Assembly: GCF_050920415.1 (NCBI RefSeq)
Contig: NZ_CP169309.1
Strand: one strand, 5' to 3'
From: Escherichia coli
GTDB lineage: Bacteria > Pseudomonadota > Gammaproteobacteria > Enterobacterales > Enterobacteriaceae
DNA length: 64,000 nucleotides
Positions 6,453-6,650 of the stretch are shown here, in pieces. Every line of letters begins with the position of its first letter. Position 1 is the stretch's first letter. Under the pieces are notes generated by a model. That model saw only the letters and a list, made by a program, of their open reading frames with translations, had not been told where the DNA came from and searched no databases. Position numbers and translations under genes: made by a program.

Positions 6453-6459
6453 AGGGCGC

Positions 6460-6625
6460 GCATATTAACTTTGTAACGTCATAGAGTCAAAGAAAAAGGC
6501 AGCCTGTGGTTGCCTTTTGCCAATAATTCGCACACATTGCGGGTTACTGCTTTATTTTCGTTCAGTGCTGATAACGAACATCAACCTGCAAAACGAAGCG
6601 CATAGTTTAAAATGGCTATCATCAA
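6460..6625 (-). ncRNA. sraB: Candidate small RNA SraB in the yceF-yceD intergenic region (coordinates approximate)
   Basis: Established knowledge that SraB maps between yceF and yceD on the yceD strand; sequence shows a hairpin (ggcagcctgtggttgcc on + strand) with adjacent U/A run at about 6488-6516; boundaries not determinable from sequence alone. Confidence 0.25.
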
Positions 6626-6650
6626 TACGCTATATCTGATGGAAAAAAAT

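Follow-up and report, generated by a model that had tools for sequence, protein, structure and literature searches.

The closest described counterpart of the element examined here is SraB (PsrD, pke20) of Escherichia coli K-12, which has the same locus, strand, terminator and hairpins; the element is already known, sraB having been annotated since 2001 and being present in Rfam and in the RefSeq annotation of K-12. A product of about 105 nt was seen in 2001 (Argaman 2001, as cited in PMC8313858), Northern and in vitro transcription results were described for it (Argaman 2001, as cited in PMC7967276), and the Salmonella RNA is about 99 nt long. SraB is repressed by ppGpp in Salmonella, is induced approximately 5-fold after replication inhibition, and drops in level during growth, a change that Hfq cross-linking does not follow. 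Binding of SraB to ProQ has been documented by co-IP enrichment, HDX, SAXS and gel shift (PMC5393179). An A-rich 5′ flank beside the oligo-U tail has been reported for RNAs whose partner is ProQ rather than Hfq, and the criterion for this class is a terminator stem of 2 bp or more with a run of four or more U behind it (PMC7367173). ProQ-bound terminator RNAs such as the cspE and malM 3′ UTRs, SibA and RaiZ share with SraB the hairpin, the tail of at least 4 U and the A-rich 5′ side. Roles are known for several ProQ-bound RNAs, which protect mRNA 3′ ends or regulate in antisense or in trans, whereas SraB is described as having "no documented function" (PMC8313858); an effect of SraB on yceF expression was not found in the literature searched. 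There is also a likeness to FinP/traJ with FinO, in that SraB, a hairpin RNA bound by the FinO-domain protein ProQ, would lie opposite the leader of a divergent gene.

Identity, strand and ends of sraB

Within the window, the whole 64,000-nt stretch of E. coli DNA analysed here, the interval singled out by a first-pass annotation coincides exactly with the spacer between yceD and yceF (Table 1), in the gene order plsX, rpmF and yceD (minus strand), then yceF (plus strand), then rluC and rne. The Rfam model of SraB, RF00077, matched this spacer over its full length (model positions 1-169) with 209.8 bits and E = 2.2e-45, where the gathering score is 130 bits. The match lies between yceF and yceD on the yceD strand, in the same order as in K-12 MG1655, where sraB (b4418) occupies 1146589..1146757 on the yceD strand; window positions equal 1153246 minus the K-12 coordinate. 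The two sequences are identical at 168 of 169 bases, the sole difference being a C at window position 6575 for a T in K-12, in the loop of the hairpin that we call SL1. The window carries the commoner allele: in 3724 of 5424 E. coli genomes SL1 is at least 99% identical to it. The best match of the window, 100% over 501 bases, was E. coli strain MFDS1022581. The locus was found in 5424 of 5426 complete E. coli genomes, as a single copy in each, although most RefSeq E. coli records that contain the sequence lack a sraB annotation. The first 7 bases of annotated sraB, at its 5′ end, lie opposite the first codons of yceF. The proposal of a SraB locus, with its gene names and divergent layout, was correct, as the RF00077 score and the K-12 annotation both indicate, and we hold it highly probable that the interval is sraB (psrD), a minus-strand small RNA gene that runs away from yceF towards yceD and is ended by a hairpin terminator.

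Table 1. Window positions of sraB, its parts and the neighbouring genes
Feature	Position	Strand	Basis or remark
yceD	5931-6452	minus	start 6452
yceD-yceF spacer	6453-6650		198 bp
yceD promoter-like site TTGACT-17-TAATAT	6462..6490	minus	80/80 loci
SraB 109-nt form, reported main transcript	6489..6597	minus	RNA-seq start and Term-seq end (K-12)
sraB (psrD, pke20), annotated 169-nt form	6489..6657	minus	RF00077; K-12 b4418
SraB intrinsic terminator	6493..6518 (stem 6494-6518)	minus	fold, conservation, Term-seq 3′ end
SL2	6521..6549	minus	fold; core CCGCAATGTGTGCGAAT nearly unchanged across genera
SL1 hairpin, contains second palindrome	6557..6597	minus	fold and compensatory changes
ATTTTAAACT, holds sraB -10-like TAAACT (6609-6604)	6604..6613	minus	72/80 loci
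yceF	6651-7235	plus	start 6651

Strand and ends, which the first-pass annotation had been unable to fix, follow from published K-12 data. Term-seq places a primary sraB 3′ end at 1146757 (+), present in three lists (eLife 62438, supplementary file 1), which converts to window position 6489 on the minus strand; it is the only 3′ end that the Term-seq tables list between K-12 1146500 and 1146799 (eLife 62438). For the 5′ end there are two values, the annotated one at 6657 and one near 6597: several RNA-seq sets put the true start 60 nt inside the annotated RNA, at K-12 1146649 (PMC7967276 and its table S1), which converts to window position 6597. That a small transcript is made, the point on which the first-pass proposal could have failed, is thus documented by published Northern, RNA-seq, Term-seq and ProQ-binding results for the nearly identical K-12 sequence. 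The RNA from 6597 to 6489, 109 nt long, was predicted to fold into three hairpins (-33.1 kcal/mol, z = -2.86), and the 169-nt form gave z = -1.92. The -10-like TAAAAT that precedes the annotated start 6657 in E. coli has not been retained in Salmonella or elsewhere, so the 169-nt form would be at best Escherichia-specific. The main SraB product is probably the 109-nt RNA, composed of SL1, SL2 and the terminator, and for the 60 nt at the 5′ end of the annotated RNA a promoter and yceF-start region is the better explanation.

We also considered whether the transcript encodes a small protein, since the minus strand holds a 13-codon ATG frame from 6603 and a 31-codon GTG frame at 6581-6676. Both frames begin before the main transcription start at 6597, Citrobacter lacks the ATG, and 72 of the 80 loci compared below lack the segment altogether; the small frames are not conserved across loci and were rejected, coding by SraB being extremely improbable.

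The terminator hairpin and the start of yceD

The hairpin GGCAGCC-TGT-GGTTGCC lies at 6498-6514. With its flanks (AAAAGGCAGCC/GGTTGCCTTTT) it extends to arms at 6494-6504 and 6508-6518 that are complementary at 10 of 11 positions around a 3-nt loop, and the A-run and T-run that the first pass had noted beside it are present. Among 2000 dinucleotide shuffles of the 198-bp spacer, 39 contained an inverted repeat of equal quality. For comparison between species we used 80 yceD loci, one per species and almost all from Enterobacteriaceae; a hairpin was kept at this site in all 45 distinct variants that they contain. On the minus strand the sequence reads AAAA-GGCAACC-ACA-GGCUGCC-UUUUUCUUU, that is, an A-run (6518-6515), the arm GGCAACC (6514-6508), the loop ACA, the arm GGCUGCC (6504-6498) and U5 (6497-6493), with the A-run pairing with the U-run and computed pair probabilities of about 1.0; the tail goes on as CUUU up to the mapped 3′ end. 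This hairpin is the SraB terminator. It also has both features of the ProQ class, a stem (6518-6494) followed by UUUUUCUUU and an A-rich 5′ flank, the AAAA at 6518-6515. A simple terminator scan flagged the hairpin on neither strand, because the minus-strand stem has an A.C mismatch and the plus-strand stem is followed by only four T.

According to the first-pass annotation the hairpin could terminate transcription on either strand. The geometry for this is there, with a symmetric stem that stands between an A-run and a T-run, and in the window the plus-strand hairpin is the more stable (-15.2 vs -11.2 kcal/mol). A strand call from the asymmetry of G.U and A.C pairs proved uninformative: the sRNA strand was the more stable in 24 of the 45 variants, so that neither strand is consistently favoured. 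However, the plus-strand stem is followed by only four U (TTTTGCC), no known transcript enters from the plus side, where the upstream sequence is yceD antisense, the Term-seq tables list no second 3′ end on either strand in the interval given above, and the A-run is already explained as a ProQ-class motif. A terminator that also stops plus-strand transcription is therefore very unlikely, and we treat the hairpin as the minus-strand terminator of SraB.

The promoter-like site of yceD was the only one found in a scan of 5800-7400. It is followed by GC-rich GCGCGCCCT and then by the yceD ATG at 6452, without a Shine-Dalgarno sequence; TAATATGCGCGCCCTATG is present in 80 of 80 loci, and the promoter-to-ATG arrangement (6450-6490, minus strand) is identical throughout the 80 species loci. 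From this spacing, the sequence suggests that the yceD message may be leaderless or nearly so, with a stringent-type discriminator. The -35 hexamer TTGACT (6490-6485) includes the two U that end the SraB tail; because the SraB 3′ end at 6489 lies inside this hexamer, the terminator may shield the yceD promoter from upstream transcription. Read-through past the terminator would add to yceD-rpmF transcripts, and such read-through in log phase has been proposed (Argaman 2001, as cited in PMC8313858).

This proposal bears on an alternative in which SraB is mainly a terminated leader, its terminator being an attenuator and read-through feeding the yceD-rpmF (and plsX-fab) message. SraB is co-directional with yceD, its terminator stands 36 nt before the yceD ATG, and the repression by ppGpp in Salmonella and the drop during growth are as for a ribosome-linked unit. 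Yet yceD does not need an upstream start, because its own complete promoter, unchanged in all 80 loci, follows the SraB terminator. In a fold test for an anti-terminator, the 5′ arm was left unpaired when the 3′ arm was absent or blocked, and SL1 and SL2 were unchanged; the terminator itself pairs with near certainty. Mimicry of or complementarity to rRNA, as a site for L32 or YceD, was also rejected: the longest matches to 23S rRNA were 9 nt in sense and 8 nt in antisense, against 8-13 nt in shuffled controls. With no anti-terminator and no rRNA likeness above chance, a riboswitch-like or r-protein-feedback leader is unlikely, and we regard the attenuated-leader alternative as a whole as improbable compared with an independent small RNA that ends at the yceD promoter.

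A conserved core and a clade-specific SL1

Spacer length divided the 80 loci into three classes: 140-143 bp in 72 loci, covering most genera; 197-198 bp in 5 (E. coli, E. albertii, Salmonella, one Citrobacter and Intestinirhabdus); and 232-267 bp in 3, with an unrelated insertion between SL2 and the terminator. The sequence of the SL2 core, GCAATGTGTGCGAAT, was found in 68 of 80 loci, ATTTTAAACT in the number given in Table 1 and its shorter form TTAAAC[TC] in 78 of 80, GCCTTTTTCTTTGACT in 74 of 80, and an A-run followed by GG, the 5′ flank of the terminator, in 77 of 80. Across these loci SL2 showed conservation in sequence only, without covariation. The RF00077 threshold was passed only in Escherichia, Salmonella and Citrobacter; Intestinirhabdus reached 105.5 bits, and the genera with a short spacer scored 34-90 bits. 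What is conserved is the 3′ part of SraB, and the model passes its threshold only in loci that carry the clade-specific SL1.

SL1 belongs to an insertion of about 57 nt (about 6541-6597) that was seen only in the Escherichia, Salmonella, Citrobacter and Intestinirhabdus loci of the 80. It directly follows the ATTTTAAACT block and so begins right at the RNA-seq start. The SL1 sequence is very divergent among the long-spacer genera while the hairpin is retained, and five SL1 pairs have compensatory changes, which supports the hairpin. The second palindrome drawn by the first-pass annotation falls in this segment. Its string, CGTTCAGTGCTGATAACGAAC, is present at 6559-6579, and in the window TTCGTT (6557-6562) can indeed pair with AACGAA (6573-6578); however, the AACAAA of K-12 weakens this pairing and other loci do not preserve it, and related sequences support pairing of 6557-6562 with 6592-6597 instead, as the base of SL1, which leaves 6573-6578 in the loop. 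The palindrome thus exists as a string, but the conserved structure is a different one. A repeated mobile element was considered as an identity for SL1 and ruled out, there being one copy per genome in 5424 E. coli genomes.

Other variation was observed in and around these segments. In 92 of 5424 E. coli genomes, SL1 is present as a divergent allele, approximately 79% identical over 63 nt (for example in strain E5, locus L083, positions 340-550), in which the inner stem is replaced and still pairs. Since the flanking changes look Salmonella-like, the sequences suggest that this allele may have been imported by recombination. In Cedecea neteri and relatives (L053, L057 and L061, at approximately 1320-1440), an insertion of 91-126 nt lies between SL2 and the terminator and would split or lengthen the SraB homologue; it is a candidate ERIC-type element (e.g., CCCCAGTCACTTACTTTAGTAAGCTCCTGGGGATTC in L053). 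In Escherichia sp. MOD1-EC7003 (L004, 1280-1512) there is no difference from E. coli in yceD, the terminator or SL2, but the upstream part of the spacer is of the short type and resembles that of Pseudocitrobacter and Kluyvera, and identity in yceF falls to 81%; judged by sequence, the spacer of this strain appears to contain a recombination breakpoint or an assembly chimera.

The yceF side and possible roles of SraB

The block at 6604-6613 appears to serve both strands, as its putative sraB -10, TAAACT, shares bases with TAAAAT on the plus strand (6608-6613), whose position would suit the -10 of a yceF start at 6621. If these assignments are right, the sraB and yceF promoters should compete, because their -10 elements overlap. 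Two yceF starts have been reported, at window positions 6621 and 6546 (K-12 1146700), the distal one from a single data set and without confirmation in a second. The yceF frame is open from an upstream ATG at 6612, which would give 207 aa, and the RefSeq start at 6651 gives 194 aa; the RefSeq start is probably right, because the 13 extra codons precede the yceF transcription start reported at 6621 and lie in a region where other genera have indels. Farther along, a REP-type palindromic repeat (7243-7315) lies between the end of yceF and the end of rluC and just missed the threshold of Rfam naRNA4 (RF02564), with 56.1 and 55.5 bits on the two strands against 59.5.

The overlapping elements lend some weight to the idea that the conserved blocks are DNA signals, namely overlapping promoters of sraB, yceF and yceD, and that the RNA is a functionless by-product of a locus acting through promoter competition or occlusion. 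The sraB and yceF starts on either side of 6604-6613 are 24 bp apart, SL2 is conserved without covariation and could reflect a DNA-level constraint, and its CACATT would be spaced to serve as a plus-strand -10 for the yceF start at 6546, with TTGCCT (6510-6515) as the -35; SraB is, moreover, abundant while yceF transcripts are hardly detectable. Against this, the compensatory changes in SL1 point to the RNA structure as the object of selection, the transcript is a stable, discrete species to which ProQ binds specifically, and an egg albumen phenotype has been reported for a Salmonella sraB mutant. We consider an explanation by DNA signals doubtful, if somewhat less so than the attenuated leader, and favour a functional RNA; SraB would most likely act by base pairing as a ProQ-associated RNA.

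The only complementary partner identified in E. coli is yceF itself, since over 52 nt a leader that starts at 6546 would be complementary to SL1. Of the two forms of SraB, that of 169 nt overlaps yceF at 6621-6657, and that of 109 nt would overlap only the leader from the start at 6546, reported in a single data set. That pairing between SraB and this distal leader is functional is a tentative possibility, well short of an even chance. Unlike FinP and traJ, the overlap of SraB with yceF depends on one reported start and is missing in most genera, as is SL1; because SL1 is absent in the 72 short-spacer loci, the antisense overlap is not the ancestral role. One scenario would combine these elements: in the Escherichia-Salmonella-Citrobacter lineage, an SL1 of about 57 nt was inserted exactly where transcription of an older, roughly 52-nt RNA (SL2 and terminator) began, produced the 52-nt sense-antisense overlap with the distal yceF leader, and turned the RNA into a ProQ-assisted, FinP-like repressor of yceF (m7GTP pyrophosphatase), with a tail that doubles as the flank of a stringent-type yceD-rpmF promoter. 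We judge this scenario improbable as a whole.

To the description of SraB the present analysis makes small additions: an SL1 insertion, specific to one clade, where transcription starts, a conserved core of about 52 nt and the overlap of the terminator with the yceD promoter. The finding matters little beyond annotation, which gains a conserved 3′ part of the RNA, a probable reassignment of its first 60 nt and a terminator that abuts the promoter of yceD.
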